Position numbers and translations under genes: made by a program
In this document: positions 18,889 through 52,656 of the stretch, one piece after another
Layout of the letters: each line of letters starts with the position of its first letter
Numbering within the stretch: position 1 is the first letter of the stretch
Notes under the pieces: generated by a model
The model's input: the letters and a program-made list of their open reading frames with translations, nothing else
Told to the model about the DNA's origin: nothing
Database searches by the model: none
Assembly: GCA_052168235.1 (NCBI GenBank)
Contig: JBQLZK010000053.1
Span: 1-52,701 of the forward strand
Source of the DNA: Thainema sp.
GTDB taxonomy: Bacteria > Cyanobacteriota > Cyanobacteriia > Phormidesmidales > Phormidesmidaceae
Reading direction: 5' to 3'
Length of the DNA: 52,701 nucleotides

Positions 18889-21800
18889 CTAATCCATTAG
18901 CAGTTGAGTAATCAGCGGTTCGGTCAGTGCTTGATGCTTTTCCGCTAGGAGTAAGTCCAAATACTGCTGCAAACGCTCTCGCTGAGCGGGATTAGGGATA
19001 TACTGCTGACCTTTGCCCTTGTGAAATAGAGGCTGCACCAACAGCGCTTTATGCCGAGCCTGAGCCGCAGCGTGCGTCTGCAACGGAGAATGGGCACTCA
19101 TGGCCGGAACCAGTCCCGGCGGCAAGTGACCTTCCAACAGCGCCATGATGTGGAAATAGCAGGCTTGGGTGTTGATGCCAAAACGCTCAAGCTGCTGCAT
19201 CATTTGGTGAATAGTTAGCGGCTGCTGCGGGAACGATCGCAAAATTTCCAGCAGCAGGAAGTAATCGTTATATTGCTGACGGGCGATATCCAGCGCTTGG
19301 GGATAGTACACCAAGTTGACTAAACCGTAGGCAATCCGGCTGCAACTAGGCGGACGGTTGGCCGCATAGGTGTCTTGAATCACCGTGGCATTGGGCAGTT
19401 TTTGCCGTAGCCAACGTGCGATCGCAGGGAAAGATGCCGTGCCGCCCGTACAAATCGCCTGCCGGATTCCTTCTGTGGCAATGCCGGATTTACTGAACAG
19501 CGTATTCAGATGACGGTTGAGCAACTGCACATAGGGCAGCAGAATCTGTCGCTCAAAGTCCTGCCGCTCAATCACCCAGCGAATGTTATTGATGGCAATC
19601 GTCATTTGTGCCTGCTGTTGCAGCAAAATCTTCAGGTGCTGAGCAGCCTGTAGCAGGCTTTGCCCCAGCCGCGAAGACTGGAGGCGCTGCCGGAGCTGCT
19701 CTCGATGCTGCAGATCCGGTTCGCCCTGCCGGGGAAGCGCTAGCTGATCCAGCTCCAGAGCCTGCCAAGCGGAGACGAGATCGCCATCGTAGGTCAATTG
19801 GAAATCCCAATCCGAGGTCATGGTGCTGAGTTCAGCGTTGCCTGAATCCGAGCCCTCCGCATCTACACTGGAGCTAACCTGTCTGGTAGGCGTCAGAGCT
19901 GGCAGCAGCGGCTGATCCGGCTGAATTTGCTGCATGGCTTGCGGATAGAGCAAATAGCAAACGATATCTTGATCTAACGCGTCACCGCCGTAGGCAATGC
20001 TGCGCAGATCAAATGCGTCAAAGCTCAGCTCCGACAGGGGATCGGGCAGTTCAACCAGCCCAAACTCAGACGTGAGCGCCCCAGCACTGAGCACCAGCGT
20101 ATTGCCTGACTGTACGGTTTGCGGATGGGCCTGAATCACGCCCACATCTAGCTGATGAGCCGTGTTGGGGTGAGGCAAAGCCGAGAGCAACGCTGCGATC
20201 GCATTATCGACAAAGAAAATCTCAGCGGGATCTTCAACAAGCTGCGCCTCCAGAATGGCCTCACGGATATTGAAACTGTAGGTATCTGGCCAGTTCGTTG
20301 GATAGCTCACAATAACGCCGCTCAGCACCCGCAACACCGTATACAGCGTATGCTGAGACAGATCAACCGCAGAACAGCAAAGCGGTGCTTCTGCCGATTG
20401 AACCGTCAGCGTTTCCAGCAGTACCTGTAGCCCCTGTTGCAGGTGAGCCAGCGGCAGCGTTTGCTCCGCCGACCAGCGAACGCTCGGCTCCAGCGTGAGA
20501 ACGGCTTCTCCCTGCTCCGGCTCAGCCGGACTGAGATAGGGCACACCGTACTTTAGGAACGGCTTGAGTCGATGCAGTTTAACCGCCGATTGCGCAGATG
20601 GCGCGGAATCAACAGGCGCGATCGCAGATTGAATAGACGAAGCGGACAGTCCAGCCAGATCAAAACAAAGGCCAACGGGCTGTAAATCCGGATGATTAGC
20701 AGTCTGGTGAGACGGAGCCGTGTACTGTACGGTATTCGGCAACCGGAAATATCGCTGGGGTCGCTCAGCCAGATGGGTTTCAGTCGTTGTCCAGAATAGG
20801 GGATGCTGCGCTTGGGTCTGCCGATTGAGCAACACGGCAGAGATGCCCGTCGCCCCAATATCCAAACCGAGATACCATTCTTGATCCTGGGCCTGTGGGT
20901 CAAGCGTCAGCGGCTTGGGTGTCGCGGGTTCTAGCTCTGGCTCATCCAGCGTCATTAGGGCCGTAGCGGCTTCATTGGCTACCGCTTCAGGATGATCAAT
21001 CGGGGTTACAGGCTTGATGTCAGTTTTGAGTACAGGTGCGATCGCATCTGTACTCAAGTCATTATCCAGCAGACTAGAGTCCAACAAATCAGCTGTGAGG
21101 TCGGGAACCACATCGCCCGCCAACTCCTCATCGCTGTTGCTTTGCCAGTCCAGTGGCTCAATCTTACCCAGTGATTCATGCTGATCGAGTTCATCCAGCC
21201 GGTGATGCCCAGATTGTTCAGTCCCTAGCCCGTTGAACAAATCGGTCGGATCGTCCTCTGTCGCATCAACAGGTTGATCTGTGGCCCGATCAGCATCGTT
21301 AGCCGCATCGTCAGCACGAGTATCTTCTGTCGGATCAGTAGCGGAGTCAGAGGCGTTAGCCTGATTGGTCGGCGTCGATGAGACAGCGGGTGCATCCGGT
21401 ATTGCAAAGTCCCCAAAGACTCCATCAATCGTCAGCGTTTGGGTATCGGTTTCAGACTTGGGTGAAGCACTGTCTTGAAACAGGCGATCTAAAACCTGAT
21501 CCGTCAAGGATTCGTTTTCTGCGTCACCCTCATCGTCAATCTTTTCGCTAGCGGTTGCTGACGGAGAAGTTACCGAGCTTACCGCGCTATCTGTATCAGC
21601 ATCATCAGCATCAATCCTTGCGGCATCCGCAGCATCTGCCTTGCTGCCAATGGCTTGACCAAACTCGTCTAGCGTAACGCCGCTATCGGTATCATCGACA
21701 TTGATATCGACATTGATATTCTCTGATTCCTGCTCCGCCTGATTGAGGTTGAAGAACAATCGATCAATGATGACCTCCATTGTTTCCGTCGATTCGGTAG

Positions 21801-24642
21801 GCTCTGGCTCAGAGGGAGCTGGCCCAGACGGGATGACGTTTGTATCGTCTAAATCTGCCGCAAAGTCCTCCAGACGGGCCGATTCATCCTCAACTGGCAT
21901 CGGCGTATCGGCATCAGAGGTTGGGAAATCAGCCCAGAACCGATCGAGCGTTACATTGTCACCCATATCACTTGGCTCACTCTCGCGGGCTGCAGGAGTG
22001 CTTTCCGCGTCAGTGAAAGGAGAATCATCAAAATCTGCTGTGAACTCGGCCAGTGTATCATCCGCTTCCGCTTCCGCCTCGGCTGAGGACTCAAATACAT
22101 GAGGCCGAGTGCTGCTATCCCTGGTCTGAGCGGTATCATCGGTTTCCCGCCGACGAGCATCATCTGACACATCAAAATCGGCACTGAAATTGGCCAGCGA
22201 CGCCGCATCGGGATCGACATCTTCTAAATTTTCAACGCCTTCCAGTTCCGACAAATCGGCACTCAACTGCTGTAGCGTATCGTCATCCAAAATAAAGTCG
22301 AGCGGCTGCACCGATGGCTTGGCAACAGGCTCAGCCAATAGGTCTTCGATGTAGCTTGCTGAAGCTGGTGATTGATCTGAAGACGGCTGATTTGGTGTAA
22401 AAGATGAGAGTTTGGTATCGGTTGGAATCAGGTCTACCGATTCATCTGCGATCGCACTTATTCCATCACCCTCAGCAACAGGTGCAACCGCAGACTCGTC
22501 GCGAACGATTTCTTCAATTGTTTCTTCCGAAATAGGTGCCGTTTCTGCCGTTACACCTGCATCCGCATCATCAGCCCAATCAAAAACAGCATCGCTCTCA
22601 GAGGTTTGCTCCGCTATCTGATCGGTCACCGGCTCAACTTCCGCTACCTGATCAACCTGATCTACCTGATCTACCTGATCGATTTGATTTATCTGATCTA
22701 CCTGATTTATCTGGTCTATCTGATCGGTTTGGCTCGGCTCGGCCACTGGCTCAACGGGTACTGGCTCGACGGGTCGAGATTCCGAACTGGGTTGGGCCTG
22801 TTCTAAGTCTGCGTTCTCGATAGGTTCAACATGTTCAACTGACGGAGCTGCTGGCTCCTCAGCCGTATTCTGCACAGCGACATCAGCCTGCTGAGCATAT
22901 TCCAACGCGGATAACTCTGCCTGCTGCAGGGCATCGTCAATCGCCTGCTCCAGATCGGTATCCAAGTCCACCTGATTCAGCAACATTTCCGTCGCTTCAT
23001 AGTCTGTCGCAGAAACTGCCTCTTCCAGGCTAGGAGCATTATTTTGGCCGAGGAGACTGGCGTAAAATTCGCCTAGCGCTTGCTGAATTTGCGGTGCGGT
23101 ATCGGTGCCGATAAACGATTCGAGCTGATCGAATGGGTCAGTCGATTCAGTCTCCTCAGCGAAATCAACGGCTTCAGGTGCGATCGCATTGGCTTCACCC
23201 ATCTCCGCGTCTGCTTCTGCTTCAGACATTTCTTCTATTTCTTCAAATATCGCGTCTGATGGAGCTACCGCAGGCGATGCAGTTAATGATGTATTTGTAT
23301 CAGTTTCATCAACTTCATTAACTTCTGTATTAACTGGCGATACATCTTCCAACGACGGCAGCTCTAAATCGAGTGAGGCCAAATCTAGACTGGTTACTTG
23401 TGAGGCTTTTCCCGTATCCTCTAAAGCCGCCGATTCAGGTGGTATGGGCATTACCAGTGCCTGATGGGTCAGGGCATCAAACTGTAAATCATTAGATTCT
23501 AGAGAATTCAGAAACTCCAGAGCCCGAGCTTGGACAGATTCCGCAATGACGATGTCCTCATCTAGGCTGCTGCTCTGATCGGCAGTGGTACTCGCTGTGG
23601 TTTCAAGCGGAACGACCGGGGTATCAGCATCAGCTGCCGCGATCGCACTACCAGACACATTCAAATCAACCCGTGGCTCTGTCCCTAGGAAGTCTCCCGT
23701 CGGCTCATCTGAGGTTAATAGCGTTGCGATCGCATCTAAATTCTCAGAATCCGCCAAGTCCGCATCCGTCGGTTGCCAAGGTAGCACAGACTGCAAATAG
23801 GCCGAGGTTTCTCGACCAAGCTGCTGCGCCAGATGACTGACCAGCACATTAATTAACGGTTCACCCGATGCGCCCAGACTTTGCACCGTGTCCAAACCCT
23901 CCGCCAGAGAAGTCTGGTAACTCTCCACATTTTGCTGAAGTGAGGCAGAAAGGGTCGTCAGCGTCACATCCAGCTCCTGCATCAACTGGTCAATCCGCTG
24001 CTGAAGCTGCTGAAGCTTGGCCAGACGCTGTTCCGGCGAAAGGGCTGCCGTTTCTGGTTCAGAAGCCGACGCTGACGCCGACAACAAGGGGGTAGCAGCC
24101 GACGTGAGCTGGGGCTGAATTTGGCTAACAGCGTGCTGAAGCTGAGCCGACAGCGACTGCTGCATTTCACTAATCAGCGCTTCCAAAAACTCGGCAATCG
24201 ACTGCTCACTGGCAGAACGAGCAGGCGAAATTGCGCCAGCACTTGTCTCCGGTACAGCAGACACAATAGACGGTGCAACTTGTTCAATTTCTCCCATCAG
24301 CCGCTGTCGCTGTCGCTGAAGATCGTCGATCTGCGATCGCATCGGCTGCATGACGTTGGTGCGTAAATATTCCACTTCTTGCAGCACGGCTTGGAGCACC
24401 TGCTGAGCGGTTTCGGCAGGCACCTCCGCCAGTCCAAGTTGGGACGATGAGGCATTGGGCAAGGCAGCACTGGTCCCTTGGGAGCGCTGCAGATCCACCA
24501 GATACTGACGGGTGCGCTCCAGAAGCTGACGCTGTTGCGAGGTTTCATGGGATGCCACCCAAGGTAGGCGTGGACTCGCCTGACTCAACAGCGTATCAAT
24601 TTCTTGAATGATGGCTTGAACTTGATTGTCTTGGGAAGTCAC
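18889..24642 (-). CDS. Giant protein: N-terminal coiled coil, long acidic low-complexity region, C-terminal Hsp70/actin-like ATPase-fold domain
   Basis: WYLGLDIGATG, SYPTNWP, GGDALDQDI and ICTGGTASFP motifs; probable GTG start at 24642 after an AGGGG RBS. Confidence 0.8.
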   Translation of the reverse strand: MTSQDNQVQAIIQEIDTLLSQASPRLPWVASHETSQQRQLLERTRQYLVDLQRSQGTSAALPNASSSQLGLAEVPAETAQQVLQAVLQEVEYLRTNVMQPMRSQIDDLQRQRQRLMGEIEQVAPSIVSAVPETSAGAISPARSASEQSIAEFLEALISEMQQSLSAQLQHAVSQIQPQLTSAATPLLSASASASEPETAALSPEQRLAKLQQLQQRIDQLMQELDVTLTTLSASLQQNVESYQTSLAEGLDTVQSLGASGEPLINVLVSHLAQQLGRETSAYLQSVLPWQPTDADLADSENLDAIATLLTSDEPTGDFLGTEPRVDLNVSGSAIAAADADTPVVPLETTASTTADQSSSLDEDIVIAESVQARALEFLNSLESNDLQFDALTHQALVMPIPPESAALEDTGKASQVTSLDLASLDLELPSLEDVSPVNTEVNEVDETDTNTSLTASPAVAPSDAIFEEIEEMSEAEADAEMGEANAIAPEAVDFAEETESTDPFDQLESFIGTDTAPQIQQALGEFYASLLGQNNAPSLEEAVSATDYEATEMLLNQVDLDTDLEQAIDDALQQAELSALEYAQQADVAVQNTAEEPAAPSVEHVEPIENADLEQAQPSSESRPVEPVPVEPVAEPSQTDQIDQINQVDQINQIDQVDQVDQVDQVAEVEPVTDQIAEQTSESDAVFDWADDADAGVTAETAPISEETIEEIVRDESAVAPVAEGDGISAIADESVDLIPTDTKLSSFTPNQPSSDQSPASASYIEDLLAEPVAKPSVQPLDFILDDDTLQQLSADLSELEGVENLEDVDPDAASLANFSADFDVSDDARRRETDDTAQTRDSSTRPHVFESSAEAEAEADDTLAEFTADFDDSPFTDAESTPAARESEPSDMGDNVTLDRFWADFPTSDADTPMPVEDESARLEDFAADLDDTNVIPSGPAPSEPEPTESTETMEVIIDRLFFNLNQAEQESENINVDINVDDTDSGVTLDEFGQAIGSKADAADAARIDADDADTDSAVSSVTSPSATASEKIDDEGDAENESLTDQVLDRLFQDSASPKSETDTQTLTIDGVFGDFAIPDAPAVSSTPTNQANASDSATDPTEDTRADDAANDADRATDQPVDATEDDPTDLFNGLGTEQSGHHRLDELDQHESLGKIEPLDWQSNSDEELAGDVVPDLTADLLDSSLLDNDLSTDAIAPVLKTDIKPVTPIDHPEAVANEAATALMTLDEPELEPATPKPLTLDPQAQDQEWYLGLDIGATGISAVLLNRQTQAQHPLFWTTTETHLAERPQRYFRLPNTVQYTAPSHQTANHPDLQPVGLCFDLAGLSASSIQSAIAPVDSAPSAQSAVKLHRLKPFLKYGVPYLSPAEPEQGEAVLTLEPSVRWSAEQTLPLAHLQQGLQVLLETLTVQSAEAPLCCSAVDLSQHTLYTVLRVLSGVIVSYPTNWPDTYSFNIREAILEAQLVEDPAEIFFVDNAIAALLSALPHPNTAHQLDVGVIQAHPQTVQSGNTLVLSAGALTSEFGLVELPDPLSELSFDAFDLRSIAYGGDALDQDIVCYLLYPQAMQQIQPDQPLLPALTPTRQVSSSVDAEGSDSGNAELSTMTSDWDFQLTYDGDLVSAWQALELDQLALPRQGEPDLQHREQLRQRLQSSRLGQSLLQAAQHLKILLQQQAQMTIAINNIRWVIERQDFERQILLPYVQLLNRHLNTLFSKSGIATEGIRQAICTGGTASFPAIARWLRQKLPNATVIQDTYAANRPPSCSRIAYGLVNLVYYPQALDIARQQYNDYFLLLEILRSFPQQPLTIHQMMQQLERFGINTQACYFHIMALLEGHLPPGLVPAMSAHSPLQTHAAAQARHKALLVQPLFHKGKGQQYIPNPAQRERLQQYLDLLLAEKHQALTEPLITQLLMD
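22645..22725 (-). repeat. Intragenic 9-bp tandem repeat encoding (D/N)Q(V/I) units
   Basis: About nine degenerate copies of ACCTGATCT, encoding DQIDQINQVDQINQIDQVDQVDQVDQV. Confidence 0.85.
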
Positions 24643-25241
24643 CGTAAAACCCCTGAATGCACTGCGGTCTCCGACTAAAATACGCCCTAGCGGATGTGAT
24701 CCGTTGAAGCGGAATGATATCGAATATTGAGCAAAAGGTATCGTTATCTCAACACAGCGATACGTGATTGGGTAATTAAGAGCATGATTTGTGTTGTGTA
24801 GGCGCGGCCCGCGCAACACAAAATTACCGTTTGAACACTACCCGTGATTGGTGATAGCACAAATTAATCAAGATGAATCAACATCTGCTGATTTTTCCTA
24901 ATTTTCACTGAGAGCTGGACAATCCAACCAACAAGTTTAGTAAACCTGGCAGTTTACTAAACCGCCACGGTTAAAACGGTCAAATTTCCCGATCTGGGTT
25001 TTGATGCAAGATGTAAGTGTTTCAAAAAAGTGAGTTATGCTATCCTGTGTCTGCTCTTGAATGTTGTAAGTCTGGCCAAATTTGTAACCTAGATTTAGCT
25101 ATTCTGATTCGGAGGCAACAGACGAGACAAAAGTGGCAAGATAAAAGTAGATGCTCCAGATTTGCCTAAATTCCGCCGCTTGTGGAATTTGAGTAGGTTA
25201 CTGGGGCTTTGACCCATATGACTTGATGGTGCAAACACCTC

Positions 25242-30048: not shown

Positions 30049-33000
30049 TTAACTCCAGTTTTCCAACTCCTCACCCCAGTCTTGTACTAAGCTAGCCACC
30101 TGCTCTCGGCGTGTCTCAAAGGTTGCCGCGATCCAAATGAGCAGACTGCCTACCCCAATACCAATCAGCCACTTTACAAACGGATAGATGCTATTCAACA
30201 CAATTAGCTGATCGATTACCGTTAGCCCCAGGAACAGCGTGCCCGCATAGAGCCACGCCCGCGTTCGCAGTGCTAAGCCAGCAAATACCGCTAATAGGCT
30301 AGCAATGCCGAGGGGCAGGCCGCTCCAGGGTTCGTTGAAGAATGCAGTGATGAAGACAATGCCAATGCCAGCTAGCCGCAGGAGGTGGCGTATGATACGG
30401 CGACCGGGTGATTGTAGGGCCGGATCAATTTGAGCGACATAAATCAGCGAGAGTCCGACAGGCAAAACATAGGCCAGCGGATCGTCAATGGCAGCGCGAT
30501 CGCACTGTCGCCAAATCAGCCAGTCAATCAGCGCCACCGATAAGTAGGTCAGCCGGATGCGTTCCGCTTGGCGGGCCAGCAGGACATAGCTAGCGGCTGA
30601 GATCGCTAAACTAACCGAGTGAATTACCTCTGCCGTGGTGATCACCATGCCAACTGGAAAGAGCAGCGCAAAGCGTCGCCAGGGAGTTTCCGACCAGCCC
30701 CAGCGCCGCCAGCTACCGCTGTAGATCAGAATGGCCAGTACACCTGCGATCGCGCCTAGCCAAGGCTGAAGAATCCGCAGTTCGGGAGCCATCAGCCGAA
30801 TATCAACTCCGAGTCCCACTAGGGCAACCAGTCCGGCATAGACCCAGAGTTCATCCAGCGGTACTGTTGCATTGGCAGGATTGATGTCGTAATCTGCTCG
30901 ATGCACCAAACGGCCTTGTTCCAATGCATAGACGACCAGAGCTAGGCCAACTGCGATCGCAAGTCCACGCAGTTGAATGCCAGATTCCATCACAAATCCG
31001 GCGGACAGGATCATCAGCAGAATTCCGACCACCCAGTGCAGGTGCGCGAGCAACTGAATATCGACTCGCTCCATCGCCAGCCAGCGCGCCAAGCCCCGTT
31101 TCAGTAAGCGATACAGCCCCATGATGACCACTACCACTAACGCCAGAATCACCATGCCATCGGCAGGAGAACCGCCTTCAGCTAGAGAAAGCTGATAGAA
31201 CACCAACTCATACCAGCCCAGCGTCAGTCCAATCAGCGCTACCCACTTCAGCCAGCGGTAGTTTAACTGCCGTCCGACACCGACGCCAATTATGGCAGCG
31301 ACCACTGTGAGCCAACCCGTCCAGGCCGTGAAATCTTCTGACCTCAGTGCGATCGCAATCAGCGCAAACAGCAGCGGCGGCACAAAGCGCGATCGCGCTT
31401 GCACTCGCATTCCCTGTTGCCCGACAATAGAAAAAACAATAAATAGTACGCTGCCCAACACGCTATTTGCGATCGCTAAATCCAGTATGTCGCCGCCGCC
31501 AATATGCACCAGTCCCGCCAGCAGCAGTTCACCCGCCCAGCTCATCACGTAAGGCGAAACGCTCCACGTTTCCCGCCAGGTACGCCCAATGATCGCAACT
31601 AGCAGGATTAGAAACGCCGCCACATAAGTCAGCGAATCACCACGCTCACCCAGATACAGCCAAGCCGCATCGGCGGTTCCCATGAGCAATAGCACCCCGC
31701 TGAGGCCGATTGCCCAGAGGTCAACTGCGATTCCATAAACCTGTAGCTGTAGACCGACCGGACGTTCAGCCCAACGGATTGCCCAGCGCTGAACCGCAGC
31801 CCAGATCAGCCAGAAGAAACCAACTGCGATCGCACCCAACAATACCCAGATTGGCCGAGCCGTAATCTGATCCCACAGAACGCTGATACCAAAGGCTAAG
31901 CCAAAGCCCACCGTCAATCCAGCCGCCCAGCGGGAGGCCAACCAAACGGTGTTCATAATCATCAAGCCTGTGGCAAAGAGGAGAGACTGCGATCGCGTTT
32001 CGGGAAATTCAAACGTCAGTAGCGGCAGTAGAACAACGGCCAATGTGCTTGCCAATGCCCAGCGATGTCGATATTCTGGCCTTTCTCGCACAGCTAATGT
32101 CGTCAAACTAAAGGGAATCACGAGCCAGAGAAGTTGCCATTGGGGAGCTAAATCCGTCGCTAATAGCAATATCTCTCGCCGAACCCACAGTAATAGGTAA
32201 CTGATGATAGCTAATGCAGCACCAATTCCTCGGCTACTGCGTCGCCACTCCAAATAGTTGCGGCCTTGGCTCCAAATCCACTCAAGGATAGCTAGGCTCA
32301 AGTATAGGGCAATCCACTCTACCTCGGGTAGCTGCGGCTCAAGATAGTTCACCAAACTGATAATCGCTAGAACACCGACAATCTGGGTAGTGTAGATACC
32401 AAGCTGATAGGCAGCAGTTTGGCGCTGAGTGATGATGCCCAGGAGCAGCGTGGAAACAATTAAGTTGATGGCTAGAGTTAACGGATCAAGCAGGCTGATG
32501 AGCGTTAGTAGCCCGCCCAAACCAATCGCAAACCAATCAGCCACTGGAACCAAATGCTGATGCTGCCGCCGTTTTAGCCAGCGGCCTGCTCCGACAATTA
32601 GCGCGACGTATGGCAAGTAAACCACACCCAGCAGCGCAAAGGCATAGTCAACCTGCGTTAATTCAACTAGGGTGTCTCTGATGCTGATTTGAACTGGATC
32701 AGGAACGCACTGCCAGATTAGGATCGGCAGTTGTAAACCAATCAGCAGCAAGAAAATCAAATCCCGCCGTGCCCAAGTTAGGCGAAGCGATTGGACAACC
32801 AAGTGTAAGCCGAATCCGCTGATTACAACTGCTTGCCAAGGCAACTCTTCAACCGCCATACCCCAGGACAGCAAAAGGATTATGCCGCTGATCAAGCCCC
32901 AGAGCTGGATAGAGCTAGGTGATCGGGATGGAGGAGCAAGAGAGGCAGCAGATGAAATTGTATCTTCTTGCCCCCTTTCTTCCCCGCTCCCTCTCTCCCC

Positions 33001-34179
33001 TGCTCCCTCTCTCCCTCTCTCCCCTGCCTCCGCTACTGCTACCTTCAACACCTGCGTCTCATGCACCAGCCAGCCCAAACCCCAGCCCACAATGCCCAGT
33101 GCCAAGCTAATCTGCTGAATCTCTACCGCTTGAGTTGACAGAACGCGCAACACCAGTAAGCCCAAAGCATAGAGCAGGATCAGCGTGATCCGGTTCAGGG
33201 GTGAAACGGCGATCGGCGATGGTGCAGGCGGTTCTCGGTTAAGACTTGTGCTAGAAGTTGGTGATTGGCGAACCGTGCGAATGAGCGTCAACGTACCCGC
33301 GATCGCACCTCCGTAGACGGCCAACAGGGGAATACGCTCCACCTGCCAGCCCCACTGCAATAGGCAAAGCCCCAAAACGACGATAGTGCAGGCCAAAGGA
33401 GCCTGTAGCTTGTGTCGATACAGGTAAATCACCACAGCGGAAAGGATGACAGTTGCGATCTCAATTGTGCCAAGTCCCAGCACGCTCTGCCAAAGGTTGA
33501 GCTGATCCATTGCCCAGAAGTTGACGGGCACCAGCAGCAGCGTTAGAAACAACAGCGTGCGCGACGTGAGCTGCAAACTAGCCTGTCGGCTCGTCCAGTA
33601 GTAGCTGCCCCCAAGCACCAGCGTATAGGCCAGCAGGACGGCGTACTGACCCGCTGCACTAAACTGAGACCACTGACTAGCGGCGAGTAGAGCCGAAGAC
33701 AGCACCACCAGCACCACACCAATGCACAGCAGCCACACGACGCTCAGTTCAGCCATCAGGGACTGGGTAATCTGCGCCCAGCGGGGTGGTTGAATCGGCT
33801 GGATCTGCGATCGCGCCTGCTCTGCACCAGCATCTGAACCAGTTGATCCAGCAATCAGTTTCTGACGGCGACGGTCACGCCTGAAGCGTCGGGCGGATTG
33901 AGGATCTGGCTCATCGACAATAAATTGCCCACCGACTGTCGTTGCTGCCTCCAACTCCGCTGCGCTGAGCACTAAGACGTTATCGACATCCTCGACACTT
34001 GCCGCTTGAGCGATTGGCACAGGACAGGATAGCTGCGTAGCTGCCAGTTGCCGTAGCTCTGTCTCTGAGATCCAGCTCAGCTGAACCAAAGTATCCAGTC
34101 CAGCCAACAGCGATGGATCATCGGCTTCTACGGATAGTTCCAAACGAATCAGCGGGGAAGAGCCTGAGGAGAACGCCAT
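30049..34179 (-). CDS. Large polytopic membrane protein (DUF2157-like)
   Basis: Very many TM segments; ELSVVWLLCIGVVLVVLSS and C-terminal LLIWIAATFETRRE patterns. Confidence 0.8.
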   Translation of the reverse strand: MAFSSGSSPLIRLELSVEADDPSLLAGLDTLVQLSWISETELRQLAATQLSCPVPIAQAASVEDVDNVLVLSAAELEAATTVGGQFIVDEPDPQSARRFRRDRRRQKLIAGSTGSDAGAEQARSQIQPIQPPRWAQITQSLMAELSVVWLLCIGVVLVVLSSALLAASQWSQFSAAGQYAVLLAYTLVLGGSYYWTSRQASLQLTSRTLLFLTLLLVPVNFWAMDQLNLWQSVLGLGTIEIATVILSAVVIYLYRHKLQAPLACTIVVLGLCLLQWGWQVERIPLLAVYGGAIAGTLTLIRTVRQSPTSSTSLNREPPAPSPIAVSPLNRITLILLYALGLLVLRVLSTQAVEIQQISLALGIVGWGLGWLVHETQVLKVAVAEAGERGREGAGERGSGEERGQEDTISSAASLAPPSRSPSSIQLWGLISGIILLLSWGMAVEELPWQAVVISGFGLHLVVQSLRLTWARRDLIFLLLIGLQLPILIWQCVPDPVQISIRDTLVELTQVDYAFALLGVVYLPYVALIVGAGRWLKRRQHQHLVPVADWFAIGLGGLLTLISLLDPLTLAINLIVSTLLLGIITQRQTAAYQLGIYTTQIVGVLAIISLVNYLEPQLPEVEWIALYLSLAILEWIWSQGRNYLEWRRSSRGIGAALAIISYLLLWVRREILLLATDLAPQWQLLWLVIPFSLTTLAVRERPEYRHRWALASTLAVVLLPLLTFEFPETRSQSLLFATGLMIMNTVWLASRWAAGLTVGFGLAFGISVLWDQITARPIWVLLGAIAVGFFWLIWAAVQRWAIRWAERPVGLQLQVYGIAVDLWAIGLSGVLLLMGTADAAWLYLGERGDSLTYVAAFLILLVAIIGRTWRETWSVSPYVMSWAGELLLAGLVHIGGGDILDLAIANSVLGSVLFIVFSIVGQQGMRVQARSRFVPPLLFALIAIALRSEDFTAWTGWLTVVAAIIGVGVGRQLNYRWLKWVALIGLTLGWYELVFYQLSLAEGGSPADGMVILALVVVVIMGLYRLLKRGLARWLAMERVDIQLLAHLHWVVGILLMILSAGFVMESGIQLRGLAIAVGLALVVYALEQGRLVHRADYDINPANATVPLDELWVYAGLVALVGLGVDIRLMAPELRILQPWLGAIAGVLAILIYSGSWRRWGWSETPWRRFALLFPVGMVITTAEVIHSVSLAISAASYVLLARQAERIRLTYLSVALIDWLIWRQCDRAAIDDPLAYVLPVGLSLIYVAQIDPALQSPGRRIIRHLLRLAGIGIVFITAFFNEPWSGLPLGIASLLAVFAGLALRTRAWLYAGTLFLGLTVIDQLIVLNSIYPFVKWLIGIGVGSLLIWIAATFETRREQVASLVQDWGEELENWS

Positions 34180-40391: not shown

Positions 40392-41672
40392 GTGATTAAG
40401 CAACCGGACACACACATGACTAACGATATTCATTCCCGTAAGACAGCTGCTTGGAAAAAGCCTGTAACCTATCTGTCGTTGATGCTGATGGGGGCAGGCA
40501 TTGCTACGGCTGGCAGCATTGCCGCTAATGAATATAGCTCTGGCACCAATGTGGCTGTAGCTCAAGAAGCTGTTGAACCTGAAACGGCTGAACCTGGAAT
40601 TGAGGTGGCTCCTGCGCCCTCTACGAGTCAAGGATTAGGTGCGATCGCAGCCAGTGGTTCCAACTTTATTAGCGATGTCGTCGAGAAAACTGGCCCTGCG
40701 GTTGTACGAATCGATGCGACTCGCACGGTGCAGTCTCAGGTGCCTGAAGCTTTCAGTGATCCGTTTTTTGAGCGCTTCTTTGGCTCTCAGGTGCCCATGC
40801 CGCCCCAAGAACGAGTACAAAGCGGCGTCGGCTCCGGCTTTATCATCAGTGACGATGGTCATATCATCACGAACGCCCACGTCATCGATGGTGCAGATCG
40901 AGTGAGCGTCACGCTCAAAGATGGCCGCACGTTAGATGGCGAAGTATTAGGAACTGACCCGGTAACCGACGTGGCCGTGATCAAAGTCAACGGCGAAGAA
41001 AACCTGCCCATCGTTAAGTTGAGCAATTCCGACCAGCTTCGGCCCGGTGAATGGGCGATCGCAATTGGCAATCCCCTCGGTTTAGACAATACCGTCACTG
41101 TGGGGATCGTCAGCGCTACTGGGCGCTCCAGCGGTCAGGTCGGTGTACCGGATAAGCGAGTCGATTTCATTCAAACCGACACGGCCATCAACCCTGGTAA
41201 CTCTGGTGGCCCGCTGTTGAATGATCGCGGTGAAGTGATTGGCGTGAATACCGCCATCATCCAAGGCGCACAAGGCATTGGCTTTGCCATCCCAATCAAC
41301 GAAGCCAAGCAAATTGCTGAAGAACTAATCACCAATGGCACGGTTGAGCACGCTTACTTAGGTGTGCAAATGGTCACGCTCGATCCCCAGGTGAAGTCTG
41401 AGATCAACAGCAATCCCAACAGTAACCTGTCTGTTGATGAAGATGAAGGCGTTCTCATTGTGAAAGTAATGCCGAACTCGCCAGCCGCTAAAGCGGGTAT
41501 CCGCGCTGGCGACGTGATTCAGGGCATTGACGGTGAAGCGGTTGAAGATTCAGAATCGCTCCAGCAGTTGGTATCCGAGAAGCGAGTTGGCGATCAGTTA
41601 AATCTTGATGTTCGCCGCAACCAGCAAGATGTTGAGCTTTCGGCCCGGTTAGAGTCGATGCCGAACCAGTAG
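40392..41672 (+). CDS. HtrA/HhoA/HhoB family serine protease with a PDZ domain
   Basis: TNAHV, TDVAV and INPGNSGGPL triad motifs; start may be ATG 40416. Confidence 0.95.
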   Translation: MIKQPDTHMTNDIHSRKTAAWKKPVTYLSLMLMGAGIATAGSIAANEYSSGTNVAVAQEAVEPETAEPGIEVAPAPSTSQGLGAIAASGSNFISDVVEKTGPAVVRIDATRTVQSQVPEAFSDPFFERFFGSQVPMPPQERVQSGVGSGFIISDDGHIITNAHVIDGADRVSVTLKDGRTLDGEVLGTDPVTDVAVIKVNGEENLPIVKLSNSDQLRPGEWAIAIGNPLGLDNTVTVGIVSATGRSSGQVGVPDKRVDFIQTDTAINPGNSGGPLLNDRGEVIGVNTAIIQGAQGIGFAIPINEAKQIAEELITNGTVEHAYLGVQMVTLDPQVKSEINSNPNSNLSVDEDEGVLIVKVMPNSPAAKAGIRAGDVIQGIDGEAVEDSESLQQLVSEKRVGDQLNLDVRRNQQDVELSARLESMPNQ

Positions 41673-41752
41673 ACTCCTAACGTTTGAGGATTCCTCTAAA
41701 GCTCATTATCATTACCGTTTCATTCACTCTCTATCTGTGGAAAGTACCTTGC

Positions 41753-41777
41753 AGCGCCCGTTATAGGGCGCTTTTTT
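41753..41777 (+). terminator. Rho-independent terminator
   Basis: AGCGCCC-gttata-GGGCGCT followed by a T-tract. Confidence 0.75.
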
Positions 41778-41945
41778 GTATCAGTTTTGGCATCGATTAA
41801 TGAATCAATCTAGCTTTCTGTAGTCAAATTAGATAGATAGTTACACGACTTGGCAAAGTTTAGTGAGATAAACCGAAGATGTGTCTCTAGGAGCGATCGC
41901 AATCAGCGATGATGCAGATAGTAGAGTTAAACACCGCAGAAACCG

Positions 41946-42030
41946 ATGCTTCCACTAGTCGGGATACCCAGCACGATTGAAGCCGGGATGGCGGCCTACC
42001 GAGATCTCTTTGCTCGTCAAGCCGGATTTG
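41946..42030 (+). mobile_element. N-terminal remnant of a transposase (IS701-like)
   Basis: Reads MLPLVGIPSTIEAGMAAYRDLFARQAGF and then runs into the antisense of the helicase; family resemblance is from memory. Confidence 0.5.
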
Positions 42031-43155
42031 CTCCTTCAGTCGTTCAATTTGATCTCGTACTTTACGCTCAAACTTGAGTAATCGGCGGATCGGCTCGCTT
42101 TCCCGCTCAGCCTGCGTCGTATCGAGCATCGTCCGTCGGCCTAACATGGCTTCTTCTACCTGAGCCGCAATCACTGGCCCCACCTTGCCTAGATCCTCTC
42201 GAATAGTGTTCACTTTCAAGGCTGCCCGTAGCAAAAACTCTAAATCACCATCTAAGTCACCCGGACGGACACCAGTTGCATCCTGCCCAGAATAGTTTTT
42301 GCCGACAAAGTGATAGATCATCACCTCATTGGCTTTTTGTCCGTGCCAATCAATCCTACCATTCCGCTGTTCCATCCGATTTGGGTTCCAGGGAGTTTCG
42401 TAGTGAATCAGATTAGAACAGTGGTTTTGTAAATCTAAACCTTCCGATGCCGCATCCGTTGCCAGCAAAATCCTGACATTGGAAATATCTGGCCCAGCCT
42501 GAAATGCCGCCTTTCCCCGTTTCCGCTCGTCTGAATTCATGCCGCCATACAGCGTCATCAAGCGCTCATCCTGAGCCAATCCTTGAATTGCTAGCAGGTC
42601 AAACAACCATTTCTGCGTTGTGCGATATTCCGTAAAGATAATGACTCGCTGATCTGACCACTGTCCATCCGGTCGGATGTGAGTGTTAATCCAATCTAAC
42701 AAAGCCTGCGCCTTGGCATCGGGACGTGTAGATGCCGTCTCAGCCCAACTTTGCATAAAGCGCAGTAAATCTTGTTCCTCTGCACTGAGGCTATGAAAGA
42801 GCTGAGAGCTAGATGCGATCGCATCATTGGTTGACTCTTCATAAATATCGTCATCGGCAAAGACTTCCTCAATCTGATCCAACTGACGGCGCAGGATTGA
42901 GACCGAAGGCTTTGAAAGCTGTCGATGCGATCGCGATTTTCCTTCTTTAACGGTCTTTTCGTGCTGCTGTAGAGTTGATAGAAACGCGGCTGGGGAGGGA
43001 AAACAGGCGTTTCTTTAAAAGCTTCAACACGAACTCTGTGGCGACCAGTTCTACCTTGTCATCTTTTGCTCCACTACACTGCAGCTCGGTATAACGCTTC
43101 AAGGCTTCATTCACTTCCTGCTCGGTATCGGTATAATCCACCGCTAATGCTTCTC
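42025..43155 (-). pseudogene. drmD: Truncated, frameshifted SNF2-like helicase (DISARM DrmD-like)
   Basis: EFVLKLLKKRLFS/SPAAF spans a frameshift near 42995; VIIFTEY, LATDAASEGLDLQ, PWNPNRMEQRNGRID(W)HGQ, IREDLGKVG; both termini missing. Confidence 0.78.
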
Positions 43156-43177
43156 ACGCCCGCCTTTTAGCGCTCAA

Positions 43178-43369
43178 GTTGCGATCGTCTTTCCGGCAAC
43201 GGAAGGGTTGAAAGCGTGTTTATCTAAGCAATGTGTCTGCTTTTCCGAGTTGCGATCGTCTTTCCGGCAACGGAAGGATTGAAAACACAGAGCAATTGTG
43301 TAAGCGACTATTAATCTATGAGATTAAAATCGTCTTTACAGAGAGTTGAAAGTACTTAAACTGGCCGGG
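43178..43369 (+). CRISPR. Mini CRISPR array with type V-K-like 37-bp repeats, a degenerate third repeat and a short terminal spacer
   Basis: GTTGCGATCGTCTTTCCGGCAACGGAAGGGTTGAAAG at 43178-43214; copy with two mismatches at 43249-43285; 34-nt spacer between them; degenerate ATCGTCTTT...GTTGAAAG ending at 43352; 17-nt spacer 43353-43369. Confidence 0.85.
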
Positions 43370-43479
43370 AACCAAAAATCAAATATGGTTACTCGGCTAG
43401 AAATTAAGGATCTTTTCTCGTTCGCTGAGATCTTTGAAACTATTTGGCTGCCAGTAAACTGGTCTGTATCGTTTTGGTG

Positions 43480-43543
43480 GACAAATAAAGTGACGCTGTG
43501 ACATTCAATTTGACGCCACGGACAAATAAAGCGACGCACCATA
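43480..43543. mobile_element. Putative Tn7-like (CAST) left end with three TnsB-site-like repeats
   Basis: GACAAATAAAGTGACG (43480), GACATTCAATTTGACG (43500) and GACAAATAAAGCGACG (43521), spaced 20-21 bp; exact terminus uncertain. Confidence 0.65.
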
Positions 43544-43558
43544 GGAGAATAACTGCAC

Positions 43559-43584
43559 AAAAAAAGCGGGGGCAGTTGCCCCCG
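43559..43584 (-). terminator. psaC Rho-independent terminator
   Basis: Minus strand CGGGGGCA-ac-TGCCCCCG-C-TTTTTTT. Confidence 0.8.
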
Positions 43585-43645
43585 GCCAGCTTAAGTACAC
43601 CAAGTTTGCAGAACACCAATACTAAATGTTTGGATCTGATGGATA

Positions 43646-44011
<366 letters not shown>

Positions 44012-44173: not shown

Positions 44174-45070
44174 CTATAGATTTAGCTTTGCCAAAACCGA
44201 TCGAGTGGAAACAATATGTTTATCTAAGCCCAGCTCTTGCGGTGGAACTCCAACGGCTAGAGCCACGAGCTGCGAGAGATGCAGGACAGGTAAGCCCAAC
44301 GGTTCACCAATCACCCGTTCAACTTCCGGTTGGCGAGAGTCCAAATTCAGGTGGCAGAGGGGGCAGGGCGTAACCATGCAGTCTGCGCCAGATGCGATCG
44401 CAGCTTTGAGATGTTTACCAGCCATTTTGAACGACTGCTCTGTTGCGTAACTGGAAATGGGCCAGCCGCAGCATTGAGTCCGTCCCTCGTAGCTCACAGG
44501 CGTTGCGCCCACGGTGCGGAAAACGTTTTCTAACGCGACCGGATTAAACGGATCGTCGTAGGGCATGACTTCCTGCGATCGCAACAAGTAACAGCCATAA
44601 AACGCCGCACATTTTAGGCCAGAGAGTTTATGCACCACACGCTTTTGCAGTTCTTCCAGGCCGTAGTCGCTGACTAAGGCCCAGAGCAGGTGCTTTACTT
44701 CGGTTGTGCCTTTGTAAGGTGAACAGCCTTCTTGTTTGAGTAGACCGTTGATCTGGTTGAAGTAATCGGGATCGTTTTGCTGGGCGTCTTTTAAGCGCTC
44801 ATCTACGTGACCAATCACGCCCTGGCAGGTGCTGCAATGGGTCAGCAGCGGCAGATTTAGTTCCCCGGCCAGGGCAATATTGCGAGCGTTGACGGTGTCT
44901 TCCAGCAGGCGTGACTCTTCTTTGAATGTACCGGAGCCGCAGCAGGAGGCTTTCTTCAGTTCGATTAGATTGATGTCGAGGGCTTTGGCTAGAGCGCCCG
45001 TTGATAAATACAGCTCGCGGCAGGCTCCCTGAGCGACACAGCCGGGAAAATAGGCGTAGGTTAAACTCAT
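44174..45070 (-). CDS. hdrB: HdrB-family CCG-domain protein (cyanobacterial SDH-associated type)
   Basis: YFPGC, SCCG, YGCYLLR, QCCG and TPCPLCHLNLD motifs. Confidence 0.88.
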   Translation of the reverse strand: MSLTYAYFPGCVAQGACRELYLSTGALAKALDINLIELKKASCCGSGTFKEESRLLEDTVNARNIALAGELNLPLLTHCSTCQGVIGHVDERLKDAQQNDPDYFNQINGLLKQEGCSPYKGTTEVKHLLWALVSDYGLEELQKRVVHKLSGLKCAAFYGCYLLRSQEVMPYDDPFNPVALENVFRTVGATPVSYEGRTQCCGWPISSYATEQSFKMAGKHLKAAIASGADCMVTPCPLCHLNLDSRQPEVERVIGEPLGLPVLHLSQLVALAVGVPPQELGLDKHIVSTRSVLAKLNL

Positions 45071-46278: not shown

Positions 46279-46377
46279 GTTATGTCAACGTTAGTTTTTG
46301 ATCAATTTGGGAATTCTATACCAAACGGCAATTTGCCGTCCATCAGGTTCATTTGTGTATCTACTAAATCCCAAACT

Positions 46378-46860
46378 ATGTCAAATTTAAAACCCGTTCA
46401 TATCGATCCAGACACCGTGATTTGGATTGAAGCTAATGATGCTGCAACTCCCGTTCCTGACATCGTTCCCGCTCGCACACCCGTCGGCGTTAGCAATGGT
46501 CATCCCGAACTGAATGGTGGCGAACCCGAACAGGGCCGCGTCTCAAAAGGTTGGCTGCCCTCACGCACCGATGCCTTGGGCCGGATGACCGACTTAATGC
46601 CGCCCACGACTGAACAATCTGCTGAATCTGACAACCCTCTTCAGCAAAGTCCAGCACTGGATCAAACGATTAAGTCCTACACCAAGTACGCACTGGGCGC
46701 GTTTCGCAATGACCAGGACATGAATGCTGTTAAGAAGGTGACGCTGGAGTTTGGCGTCAACCTCAGCGGCGTCGGCGGTGTGCCTTACATTGCCTCTGGC
46801 ACCGTCGGCTGCAATATCAAAATCACCGTCGAGTGCGACTTCTCCAAAGAAGACTCCTAA
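46378..46860 (+). CDS. Trypsin-co-occurring domain (Trypco1 / CU044_2847-like) protein
   Basis: C-terminal VKKVTLEFGVNLSGVGGVPYIASGTVGCNIKITVEC; probable ATG at 46378. Confidence 0.7.
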   Translation: MSNLKPVHIDPDTVIWIEANDAATPVPDIVPARTPVGVSNGHPELNGGEPEQGRVSKGWLPSRTDALGRMTDLMPPTTEQSAESDNPLQQSPALDQTIKSYTKYALGAFRNDQDMNAVKKVTLEFGVNLSGVGGVPYIASGTVGCNIKITVECDFSKEDS

Positions 46861-47964: not shown

Positions 47965-48158
47965 ATCGATGCCAAAATCTCCAAAGTTGTTGACTGTTCA
48001 TCCTGTTGCGATAAATGCTGAAATCCCCGACAGCTATGGCAATCACCTAAGCTTGCCGGGGCATTGAGTGACAAAAAAACGGGCTTAACCGTAAAATTCT
48101 ATTTTTCTTATCGAAAATGAATAAAGATCCACCCTTGCCAATTTTCTGTGGAACTGGC

Positions 48159-51204: not shown

Positions 51205-52656
51205 CTAATTAAGCGTTTGAATAAAAGCGATGCTAAAAACGATGATCAGCCGACCTAATGCTATGCCTAAAACTACAATTATGACTAAGTTAATAACGCC
51301 CCATTTCGTGTGCGGATGACGCCATCCCAAATGTTTAGAGGCAATCTTTAAGGATTGAATTTGTAGAAGAATTGCTTTTATAAACTTCCACGGATTCAAT
51401 GTAGACATATAAAGCCCCGCCAGATTGTTGAGGCTGGTGGCGACAGAGGGATGCTCCTGGCCTAATAAGCGTTTCTGCATCTCTAAGGCTTGCAGATAGA
51501 GCGGTTCGGCCTCTCCATAGCGCCCTTGAGACTCATAGAGCCCCGCCAGATTGTGGAGGCTGGTGGCGACAGAGAGATGCTCCTGGCCTAAACGTAGTTG
51601 GCTTTGTTGTAGCCCATACTCACACCAAATTTGGGCATCATCATACAAACCTTGATTCCAATAGAATCGGCAAATCCCCTCAAATAAAGCTTCCAAATCT
51701 TGATCGGCTACCGAATCTAAGGACTCTTTTGCTATTGTTTCAAGGTGTGCAATTTCTAGACTTAATCTATCGATGTCGGCAAGACTAGCGCCTTCTGGAA
51801 CAGATTGAGCTGTTTCAATTAGAGCATCAACAAATGCCTGTTGGATTTGATTCGCTTCTGTAGCATTGCATTGCTTGAGCCGTAAAAACTCGTGAATCAG
51901 CGGATGTAGCTTAAATCCATCGGCTTCAGCCGTTTGAATCAGATGTAGCTGATAGAGCTGATGTTTCGCTTCATTCAATGCTTGAGAATTCCAATCTAAT
52001 TGCTCAGCAGCCCTTTCTACTAAGCACCAAGGAATCGTATCCTCTGCAAATAAGCTCAGCAACCGCCCTACATTTTGCGCTGGGGCGGTGAGTTCTTGCC
52101 AACTCAATTCAAAGGCAGATCGCACTCCTTGCTGAGCTGTCATCACATATTTATCTGATCGCTGATTCAGGGCTTGATCTCGCAGGTTGGTTCGTAACTC
52201 AGCCAATTTGAGAAACGGCTTCTCAGCCAAATAGCGACCAACCAGTTCAATGCCTAACGGCAAATGCCCCAAATCCCCGCATAGTTCCTCAGCGATTTTT
52301 GCTTCGGCTTGTACTCGCCTATCACTAATCAGTTCTACTAACAGATCTATCGCGGCTGCTGGAGATAAAACATCCAATGATAACTCAAAAAATCCAGCAT
52401 CTAACTGGCGACGGCGAGTCGTGATCAAAACTCGAAACCGTTTCGGTAACTGCTGCACCAAATTTTGAAAGTTGGACTGCTCTGTCACATCATCCAAAAT
52501 CACCAAAACTTGCCCTTTGGCTTTCCACTGTTGCAAGCACCAGCGCACCTGAGTTGGGGTATCTAATGCTTTGCCGCCCACTTCGTTGGGAACCACCATA
52601 TTCAGCTCAAACTGAACAAATTCCAAAAGCTGTGGAATCAGTTCTTCCGGGAGCAC
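51205..52656 (-). CDS. NB-ARC/STAND-type protein with TPR repeats and a C-terminal TM segment; N-terminally truncated (possible pseudogene)
   Basis: Walker B VLVILDDV, LITTR, LGHLPLGI, LHPLIHEF; TPR ATSLHNLAGLYESQGRYGEAEPLY; no Walker A before the in-frame stop at 52699-52701. Confidence 0.75.
   Translation of the reverse strand: MLPEELIPQLLEFVQFELNMVVPNEVGGKALDTPTQVRWCLQQWKAKGQVLVILDDVTEQSNFQNLVQQLPKRFRVLITTRRRQLDAGFFELSLDVLSPAAAIDLLVELISDRRVQAEAKIAEELCGDLGHLPLGIELVGRYLAEKPFLKLAELRTNLRDQALNQRSDKYVMTAQQGVRSAFELSWQELTAPAQNVGRLLSLFAEDTIPWCLVERAAEQLDWNSQALNEAKHQLYQLHLIQTAEADGFKLHPLIHEFLRLKQCNATEANQIQQAFVDALIETAQSVPEGASLADIDRLSLEIAHLETIAKESLDSVADQDLEALFEGICRFYWNQGLYDDAQIWCEYGLQQSQLRLGQEHLSVATSLHNLAGLYESQGRYGEAEPLYLQALEMQKRLLGQEHPSVATSLNNLAGLYMSTLNPWKFIKAILLQIQSLKIASKHLGWRHPHTKWGVINLVIIVVLGIALGRLIIVFSIAFIQTLN

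Follow-up and report, generated by a model that had tools for sequence, protein, structure and literature searches.

In a 52,701-nt contig stretch from Thainema sp. (here called the window, to whose positions all coordinates refer), the segment at 43178-43559, probably together with a drmD fragment that extends back to about 42022, is very probably the remnant of a type V-K (Cas12k) CRISPR-associated transposon (CAST). The segment consists of a CRISPR mini-array, a truncated repeat (R*) followed by a 17-nt spacer, and a Tn7-like left end, and the 17-nt spacer matches a site at the terminator of the photosystem I gene psaC. Elements of the V-K type comprise cas12k, a trans-activating CRISPR RNA (tracrRNA), an array of 37-nt repeats, and a truncated repeat joined to a 17-nt spacer called "att" or "anchor"; this homing spacer reads towards the left end, and its protospacer is located just outside the element, on the opposite strand and with GTN as its protospacer-adjacent motif (PAM) (Hsieh & Peters preprint). 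The "anchor spacer" scheme of Ziemann et al. 2023 is the same for V-K CASTs. The order found in the window, namely, array, R* with the 17-nt spacer, left end, and opposite-strand protospacer with a GTN PAM, corresponds to the V-K search rule.

The comparison set comprised 80 fetched cyanobacterial loci, obtained by a genome scan with the HdrB-like protein encoded at 44174-45070, next to psaC, as the query; with the window, the set amounts to approximately 1.2-1.3 Mb. Pfam scans covered 32 open reading frames (ORFs), that is, 31 of the 42 window ORFs of at least 110 amino acids (aa) and one 64-aa frame, and the 11 ORFs of at least 110 aa that were left out were judged to be overlapping frames. 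A control scan in the style of Hsieh and Peters retrieved each 17-mer that follows GAAA[GC] and has its reverse complement at most 800 nt downstream, with at most 3 mismatches.

Results

Homing spacer and attachment site behind psaC

The 17-nt anchor (homing) spacer (TACTTAAACTGGCCGGG, 43353-43369, plus strand) was analyzed by direct sequence reading, a repeat search, sequence shuffling, and the scan of the 80 loci. As claimed in an earlier note on this DNA, it matches the minus-strand sequence TACTTAAGCTGGCCGGG at 43597-43581 in 16 of 17 positions, or in 17 of 18 if the G in front of it is counted, and the similarity does not extend beyond 17 nt. GGTG, reported in that note to precede the target, is present at 43601-43598 of the minus strand, which puts GTG (43598-43600, minus strand, direct sequence reading) directly 5' of the protospacer, in the position of the PAM. 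The degenerate repeat ending in GTTGAAAG right before the 17-mer proved to be a genuine copy of the two full repeats, the alignment of the three having 21 invariant columns, and the target has the orientation initially described, with the protospacer pointing into the Tn7-like end.

We assessed how often such a match occurs. At up to 3 mismatches, the 17-mer pattern was found 3 times in the window, namely, at both sites and at 48044 (3 mismatches), compared with a mean of 0.15 in shuffled windows, and 3 matches were reached in none of 100 shuffles. The control scan of the window and the 80 loci returned 23 hits, of which 2 had no more than 1 mismatch (the window and locus L052) and 4 had a GTN PAM (L052 with 3 mismatches, L017, L025, and the window). 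The combination of no more than 1 mismatch, a GTN PAM, and the GTTGAAAG context was seen, among these 23 hits, in the window alone. In the one-mismatch pair of L052, a GTN PAM and the repeat context are both missing. Of the 80 loci, only L001 contains the exact 17-mer, in its own psaC 3' region; the 17-mer is thus not a sequence dispersed through the window and the 80 loci, a situation that would have spoken against a homing spacer. The L017 candidate (GGTTGAAAC, GTT PAM, 3 mismatches) showed neither end repeats nor a tRNA on reading and was dismissed as a chance hit. The L052 pair is an inverted 17-mer pair with one mismatch at 12967-13045 of that locus, about 180 nt behind psaC, and is probably a hairpin.

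The gene behind which the target is found, psaC (43646-43894, minus strand), encodes the photosystem I iron-sulfur protein (TIGR03048, PS_I_psaC; 181 bits against a cut-off of 130.65). Its intrinsic terminator (43559-43584, minus strand) is composed of a stem-loop at 43584-43567 with 7 G-C pairs and a T-run at 43565-43559. The protospacer, or attachment target (43581-43597, minus strand), overlaps this terminator, as had been noticed previously, 4 of its nucleotides lying within the 5' arm of the stem; it is identical in L001. The window psaC matches psaC in 17 of the 80 loci at 90-100%, located behind the query gene. A terminator is present 55-95 nt past the stop codon in all 17, and L001, which is the only one with the PAM and the protospacer, keeps the terminator stem and differs in the loop. 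Since PAM and protospacer are found in only 1 of the 17 related psaC loci, the target, in contrast to a tRNA gene, is non-coding sequence specific to this lineage. No tRNA gene was detected in the window by ARAGORN. The absence of a tRNA from the window, the position of the target at the terminator, and the V-K layout support the proposal of the earlier note that the element homed to an atypical, non-coding site behind psaC. The PsaC proteins of the window and L001 (11179-11421) read RVYLSNAE, as opposed to RVYLGAE in the 16 other fetched psaC sequences, and are one residue longer, a lineage marker.

CRISPR mini-array

The array was defined by a repeat search and alignment, and all its parts are on the plus strand. 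Repeat 1 (43178-43214) and repeat 2 (43249-43285) are 37 nt long, end in GGGTTGAAAG and GGATTGAAAA, respectively, and are identical in 35 of 37 positions, repeat 2 being without the terminal G. They are followed by spacer 1 (43215-43248, 34 nt), for which no convincing target was found, and spacer 2 (43286-43322, 37 nt), whose best match elsewhere, 17 of 20 nt in locus L013, is regarded as a chance event. The third repeat, R* (43323-43352), is degenerate and shortened. In its alignment to repeats 1 and 2, ATCGTCTTT and GTTGAAAG are preserved, whereas 7 nt are deleted internally and the 3' arm of the hairpin is lost. Accordingly, R* folds without a hairpin, and for repeat 1 a 7-bp stem closed by a GCAA loop is predicted, with the 8-nt tail GUUGAAAG behind it.

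Two comparisons relate these repeats to V-K systems. The 3' end agrees with the published V1 consensus wkrGGyGGGTTGAAAG in 13 of 16 positions, including all of the last ten, and the window repeat and that of the V-K CAST from Geitlerinema sp. PCC 7407 have 32 of 37 positions in common (hand count). In the published V-K table (PMC12416283), GGAAGGGTTGAAAG is found in the PCC 7407 row only. The possibility that the repeat belongs to a CRISPR type other than V-K, raised in the earlier note as an argument against a CAST, is therefore not borne out, given the 32 identical positions shared with a Cas12k-associated repeat. The 80 loci contain no copy of the repeat, even with 12 mismatches allowed, nor do end repeats cluster in any of them.

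Several observations concern spacer 1 and the region upstream of the array. The first 19 nt of spacer 1 (43215-43233) match the psaC coding sequence at 43699-43681 (minus strand) in 15 positions; the four mismatches are all synonymous, both sequences reading R-V-Y-L-S-N, and the PAM position is occupied by ATC, not GTN. This match stops after 19 nt, and matches of 15 in 20 nt are frequent by chance in 1.3 Mb. Spacer 1 also shares a 13-nt exact match (TGTTTATCTAAGC) with the HdrB-like gene (44217-44229, plus strand), without a PAM; L001 shares this stretch, and the match is probably due to chance. A promoter-like sequence, TTCACT-16-TATAAT (10 of 12 positions), is present at 43110-43137 on the plus strand, inside the drmD fragment, at a distance of 41 nt from repeat 1 on its upstream side; the region shows no enrichment of such sites (5 found, 3.0 expected).

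Transposon left end and insertion boundary

The transposon left end (43479-43559) was delimited by its repeat units of about 20 bp, the break in homology with L001, and a TGT-type tip. The units are located at 43479-43496, 43499-43517 (weaker), and 43520-43537, in addition to a degenerate terminal unit, and begin about 110 nt past the anchor spacer; a search of the window that tolerated 3 mismatches located GGACAAATAAAGYGACGC at 43479 and 43520 only. The tip, in the inward direction from 43559, reads TGTGCAGT, which agrees in 7 of 8 positions with tgtacagt, the tip of ShCAST and of the Myxosarcina element. ShCAST ends read tgtacagtgac in the primers given in PMC9527255, and in the PMC12416283 dataset, the Myxosarcina left end starts with TGTACAGTGACA directly after its tRNA. 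Tn7-like ends finish with an 8-bp sequence ending in TGT/ACA, and Tn7-like elements have TnsB sites packed closely at the end proximal to the attachment site. Of a Tn7-type end, which would also include a 5-bp target duplication, the window shows the tip and units of about 20 bp, three or four in number. A search of the window with up to 5 mismatches allowed yielded no second transposon end. The motif TGTAGTCAAATT near 41826 was considered, but it has only an 8-mer in common with the left end and was discarded as a chance similarity.

The boundary of the insertion was derived from L001, the closest relative, whose neighboring protein is 98% identical and whose DNA is 88.8% identical over 4 kb, compared with 81% for the next-best locus. 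From the psaC stop codon to 43556, L001 and the window are identical in 87 of 92 positions, with PAM and protospacer unchanged, whereas beyond this point 74 of 152 positions are identical over the 138 nt to the contig end, the level of shuffled sequence (mean 0.50). At the sequence level, this sharp break indicates an insertion beside an otherwise conserved site. Homology is lost at 43556-43559, on TGTGCAGT, which, in combination with the descriptions of Tn7-type ends, places the tip at 43556-43559, the more likely position of the actual end of the element. An apparently empty psaC 3' site, for which the earlier note proposed to search in relatives, is present in L001, which has the same PAM and protospacer without the sequence past about 43555. 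That note also held that relatives without the element should not retain 43323-43543; L001 does not retain it over the part covered by the comparison (about 43418-43555, 138 bp). Directly behind its empty psaC site, near the contig end, L001 contains a long imperfect hairpin (11535-11591; 57 nt, 84% self-complementary).

The cluster of TnsB-like repeats reported previously was thus recovered, but not its distance of 54-56 bp from the PAM, since 58-60 nt separate its outer edge (43537-43539) from the protospacer start. The tip is at a distance of 38 nt (tip at 43559) or 41 nt (L001 breakpoint) from that start. Natural V-K PAM-to-left-end distances are given as 46-82 nt, with one outlier of 147, in Ziemann et al. 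2023, and the average V-K distance is 62 (V1) or 54 (V2). For six rows of the PMC12416283 table, we computed 57, 62, 63, 65, 69, and 72 nt. The distance from the anchor spacer to the tip is 190 nt, and the same six rows have 152-279 nt. The short spacing in the window means either that this lineage inserts closer to the PAM or that the outermost end was remodeled later.

Decay of the element

Among the 32 scanned window ORFs, no Pfam match to cas12k, tnsB, tnsC, or tniQ was obtained; the families found across these ORFs correspond to housekeeping, signaling, and surface-protein genes. Only 25 nt separate repeat 1 from the drmD fragment, which leaves no room for cas12k. The search for a tracrRNA or anti-repeat in the window was equally negative, the 3' end of the repeat being complemented only by the repeats themselves, and Rfam returned nothing at the gathering threshold for the whole window and nothing at an E value of up to 1 for 41600-43700. 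Of the features that define V-K membership, the window therefore has the array of 37-nt repeats with the GGGTTGAAAG 3' end, the truncated repeat with a 17-nt spacer, and the GTN protospacer, and it lacks cas12k, the tnsB-tnsC-tniQ operon by the right end, and the tracrRNA. In the absence of any CAST protein gene, tracrRNA, or right end, the V-K assignment is drawn entirely from non-coding signatures.

Upstream of the array there is an internal fragment of drmD, the DISARM helicase gene (42022-43153, minus strand), which corresponds to residues 362-738 of a protein of about 1053 and is frameshifted near 42990-43002. By tblastn, it shares 84-86% identity, in two frames, with the proteins P0003 and P0001; it aligns with positions 392-708 of the 1021 of the NCBIfam profile DISARM_DrmD at 390 bits, against a cut-off of 610 set for the whole protein. 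PADLOC calls the fragment DrmD, and named homologues were retrieved. The fragment is probably left-over cargo. It is met at 42022-42029 by the first 28 codons of an insertion sequence (IS) transposase (41946-42029, plus strand), which in tblastn are 100% identical to residues 1-28 of P0121 and P0122. Both of these database proteins carry DDE transposase domains, namely, PF13546 (precomputed) and, in P0122, also PF01609; the 48-aa stub frame itself had no match in the Pfam or NCBIfam scans. The contact between the IS stub and the drmD fragment marks a rearrangement junction.

To the left of the IS stub are the htrA terminator and then housekeeping genes. Neither htrA nor any other left-hand neighbor is found behind psaC in any of the other loci, so the left boundary of the element cannot be set from relatives. 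With the genes and one end absent and other parts reduced to fragments, the CAST-derived DNA amounts to only about 1.5 kb. The element is a fossil, of which there remain part of the interior of drmD, two and a half units of the CRISPR repeat, and the left end. Such decay is common in V-K systems, since tnsBCQ is kept in only 152 of 282 cas12k loci (Hsieh & Peters preprint). A blastn search of the plasmid collection with 43150-43565 gave no match.

Five further genes of the window were recorded, the first three on the minus strand. The ORF at 18889-24819 (1976 aa) has no Pfam match, that at 30049-34179 (1376 aa) has a weak SxtJ match only, and that at 10908-16469 (1853 aa) encodes a surface protein of the RTX, FG-GAP, CARDB, and metalloprotease type. 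Two possibly defense-related genes are located outside the element, namely, those for an NB-ARC and TPR (STAND-type) protein (51205-52656, minus strand) and for a protein with a Trypco1 domain (46282-46860, plus strand).

Discussion

Assignment to the V-K family

Homing of V-K elements by a truncated repeat with a 17-nt spacer is reportedly also to be credited to Saito et al. 2021. With the V-K homing systems, the element behind psaC shares the 37-nt repeats, R* with a 17-nt spacer, an opposite-strand GTN protospacer outside the element, and a spacer about 190 nt inside the end. It differs from them in its target, which is the psaC 3' region and terminator and not a tRNA gene, and in the spacing of 38-41 nt as opposed to 46-82 nt. 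The closest individual likeness is to the PCC 7407 CAST (Cas12k AFY67257.1; Dataset 3, PMC12416283). According to that dataset, it has in common with the window the repeat (32 of 37 positions) and its hairpin design, and its anchor spacer is mismatched to the target as well, in 2 of 17 positions. As listed there, the PCC 7407 CAST is, in contrast, complete (TnsB, TnsC, TniQ, and Cas12k) with a length of about 60 kb, its target is a tRNA gene, the protospacer start is 72 nt from the left end, and the anchor unit is about 400 nt from the array. The dataset also lists it as "no tracrRNA".

A number of points weigh against this assignment. (i) The anchor spacer carries one mismatch (A/G) to its target. 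(ii) The defining protein gene, the tracrRNA, and the right end are all absent from the window. (iii) The empty site is documented by a single locus, L001, whose contig ends 138 bp past the breakpoint. (iv) The 38-41 nt between PAM and tip fall short of the published 46-82 nt and of the 57-72 nt in the six table rows, a comparison that depends on how papers define the start of the left end; of the distances measured, that to the first strong TnsB repeat (43539, 58 nt) alone fits the published range. (v) The terminal unit beside the tip is degenerate, and 14-20 nt lie between the strong unit and the tip. (vi) The hairpin and 8-nt tail of the full repeats resemble Cas6-processed repeats, for example, those of type I-D, and V-K repeats have been described as being without that stem-loop (Hsieh & Peters preprint). 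The last point is met by the PCC 7407 V-K repeat, which has the same hairpin design, so that the Cas6-like appearance is also found in a genuine V-K array.

This Cas6-like appearance is an argument for reading the locus as an ordinary, Cas6-processed host array (type I-D or III), or as a type I CAST array, beside an unrelated Tn7-like end, the 17-nt match then being a partially self-targeting spacer. The 7-bp stem, the tetraloop, and the 8-nt GUUGAAAG tail would suit such an array, and type I-D likewise has 37-nt repeats and a GTN PAM (Hsieh & Peters preprint). Type I guides, however, match over about 32-37 nt, whereas the match here is exactly 17 nt long and starts right after the GAAAG of a truncated repeat, which is the V-K signature. 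Moreover, the closest repeat in the V-K table searched (PMC12416283) belongs to a Cas12k element, the direction of the target and its position relative to the end fit V-K, and we found neither cas genes among the scanned window ORFs nor a full-length (about 35-nt) match between spacer and target. We thus judge a host or type I array to be quite unlikely. Still further down the scale is a Tn7-like transposon of the kind that targets CRISPR arrays, inserted beside an orphan array. Transposons of this kind exist in cyanobacteria, in or next to arrays (Chacon Machado & Peters 2025), but they insert at a fixed position within a spacer and leave the array outside, whereas here the array is inside the end and the tip faces psaC. 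In addition, tnsAB, tnsC, and tnsD were not found among the scanned window ORFs, and the 17-nt match with its PAM would be left unexplained, which makes this origin very improbable. Equally little speaks for the idea that the inverted match arose by chance or as a by-product of the terminator hairpin. Its G+C-rich part (GGCCGGG) does belong to the terminator stem, and another inverted 17-mer with 1 mismatch is found behind psaC in L052; yet only 4 protospacer nucleotides are within the stem, no shuffle attained the observed count, the match stands in the exact V-K context of truncated repeat, PAM, end, and orientation, and the L052 pair has neither PAM nor repeat context.

A further alternative accepts the V-K origin and concerns the present state of the element. 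A V-K element elsewhere in the genome might supply Cas12k, tracrRNA, and TnsBC-TniQ, and the relic would then still be used, either because its guide directs insertions or because its left end confers target immunity on psaC. The fairly good preservation of the repeats, the spacer (16 of 17), and the TnsB units would be in line with continued use, as would the site upstream of repeat 1 that resembles a promoter in 10 of 12 positions and suggestions in the literature that degraded Tn7-like elements can be mobilized in trans. We nevertheless consider such use improbable, since the relic itself is immobile for want of a second end in the window, promoter-like sites are as frequent as 5 against 3.0 expected and hence not enriched, repeat 2 is without its terminal G, and the spacer is mismatched. 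Taken together, we conclude that the psaC-anchored element is a decayed V-K CAST left end with a narrowly conserved attachment site.

Proposed history

From the published V-K mechanism, the following course of events can be proposed. A short CRISPR RNA (crRNA) would have been made from the truncated repeat and the 17-nt anchor spacer, and Cas12k with this crRNA would have bound the GTG-flanked protospacer in the 3' untranslated region (UTR) of psaC. TniQ, TnsC, and TnsB would then have integrated the element distal to the PAM, with the left end leading, immediately behind the U-tract of this gene's terminator, an insertion that would have left psaC and its terminator intact and would be comparable to that of Tn7 in the glmS terminator. 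Subsequently, deletions and an IS-associated rearrangement may have removed cas12k, the tracrRNA, most of the cargo, tnsB, tnsC, tniQ, and the right end. The absences and the breakpoints are evident in the window, and the sequence of events is our reconstruction from them. With machinery and right end lost, none of the three relics (mini-array, anchor unit, and left end) can move, and any activity on their part would require that the proteins and the tracrRNA be provided by a further V-K element elsewhere in the genome.

Implications for attachment-site choice

V-K attachment sites other than tRNA genes have already been reported, namely, mutS, mutL, ffs, a nuclease gene, and a putative small RNA (Hsieh & Peters 2021), so the psaC 3' site is an atypical landing place for a known kind of element. 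The RNA-guided attachment outside tRNA genes is common to both; the reported sites are genes or functional RNAs, whereas the site described here is a 3' UTR and terminator that is kept in 1 of 17 psaC loci. A full-text search of the literature retrieved no report that connects Cas12k with psaC and, among the matches listed, no relevant title on Tn7 and psaC, a provisional result because the attachment-site table of Hsieh and Peters was outside its coverage. The psaC 3' site also parallels the glmS strategy of Tn7 by an RNA-guided route. In both cases, insertion takes place in or just past the terminator of an essential, conserved gene that stays intact; at attTn7, the TnsD protein reads the glmS coding sequence, and here an RNA guide reads a non-coding region.

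The practical value of the element is limited, as no working genes remain, and its significance is in what it implies for the family. A homing guide that reads the non-coding terminator region behind psaC widens the range of V-K attachment sites. The presence of the site in only 1 of 17 related psaC loci implies that attachment-site guides can be narrow and recently acquired, in agreement with the usage of V-K attachment sites having been noted as "dynamic". Orphan mini-arrays beside a Tn7-type end can be fossils of CASTs and not host immunity loci. A broader proposal, which we put forward tentatively and regard as rather unlikely in its entirety, is that V-K elements can re-anchor on lineage-specific non-coding DNA in place of a universally conserved gene, in this case on the 3' UTR and terminator behind an essential gene with high expression, sequences that only very close relatives have kept, and that the spacing of 38-41 nt may reflect insertion in this lineage about 20 nt nearer to the PAM than in any described V-K system. 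If true, the closer insertion would imply a shorter "ruler" for the spacing between Cas12k and TnsB.

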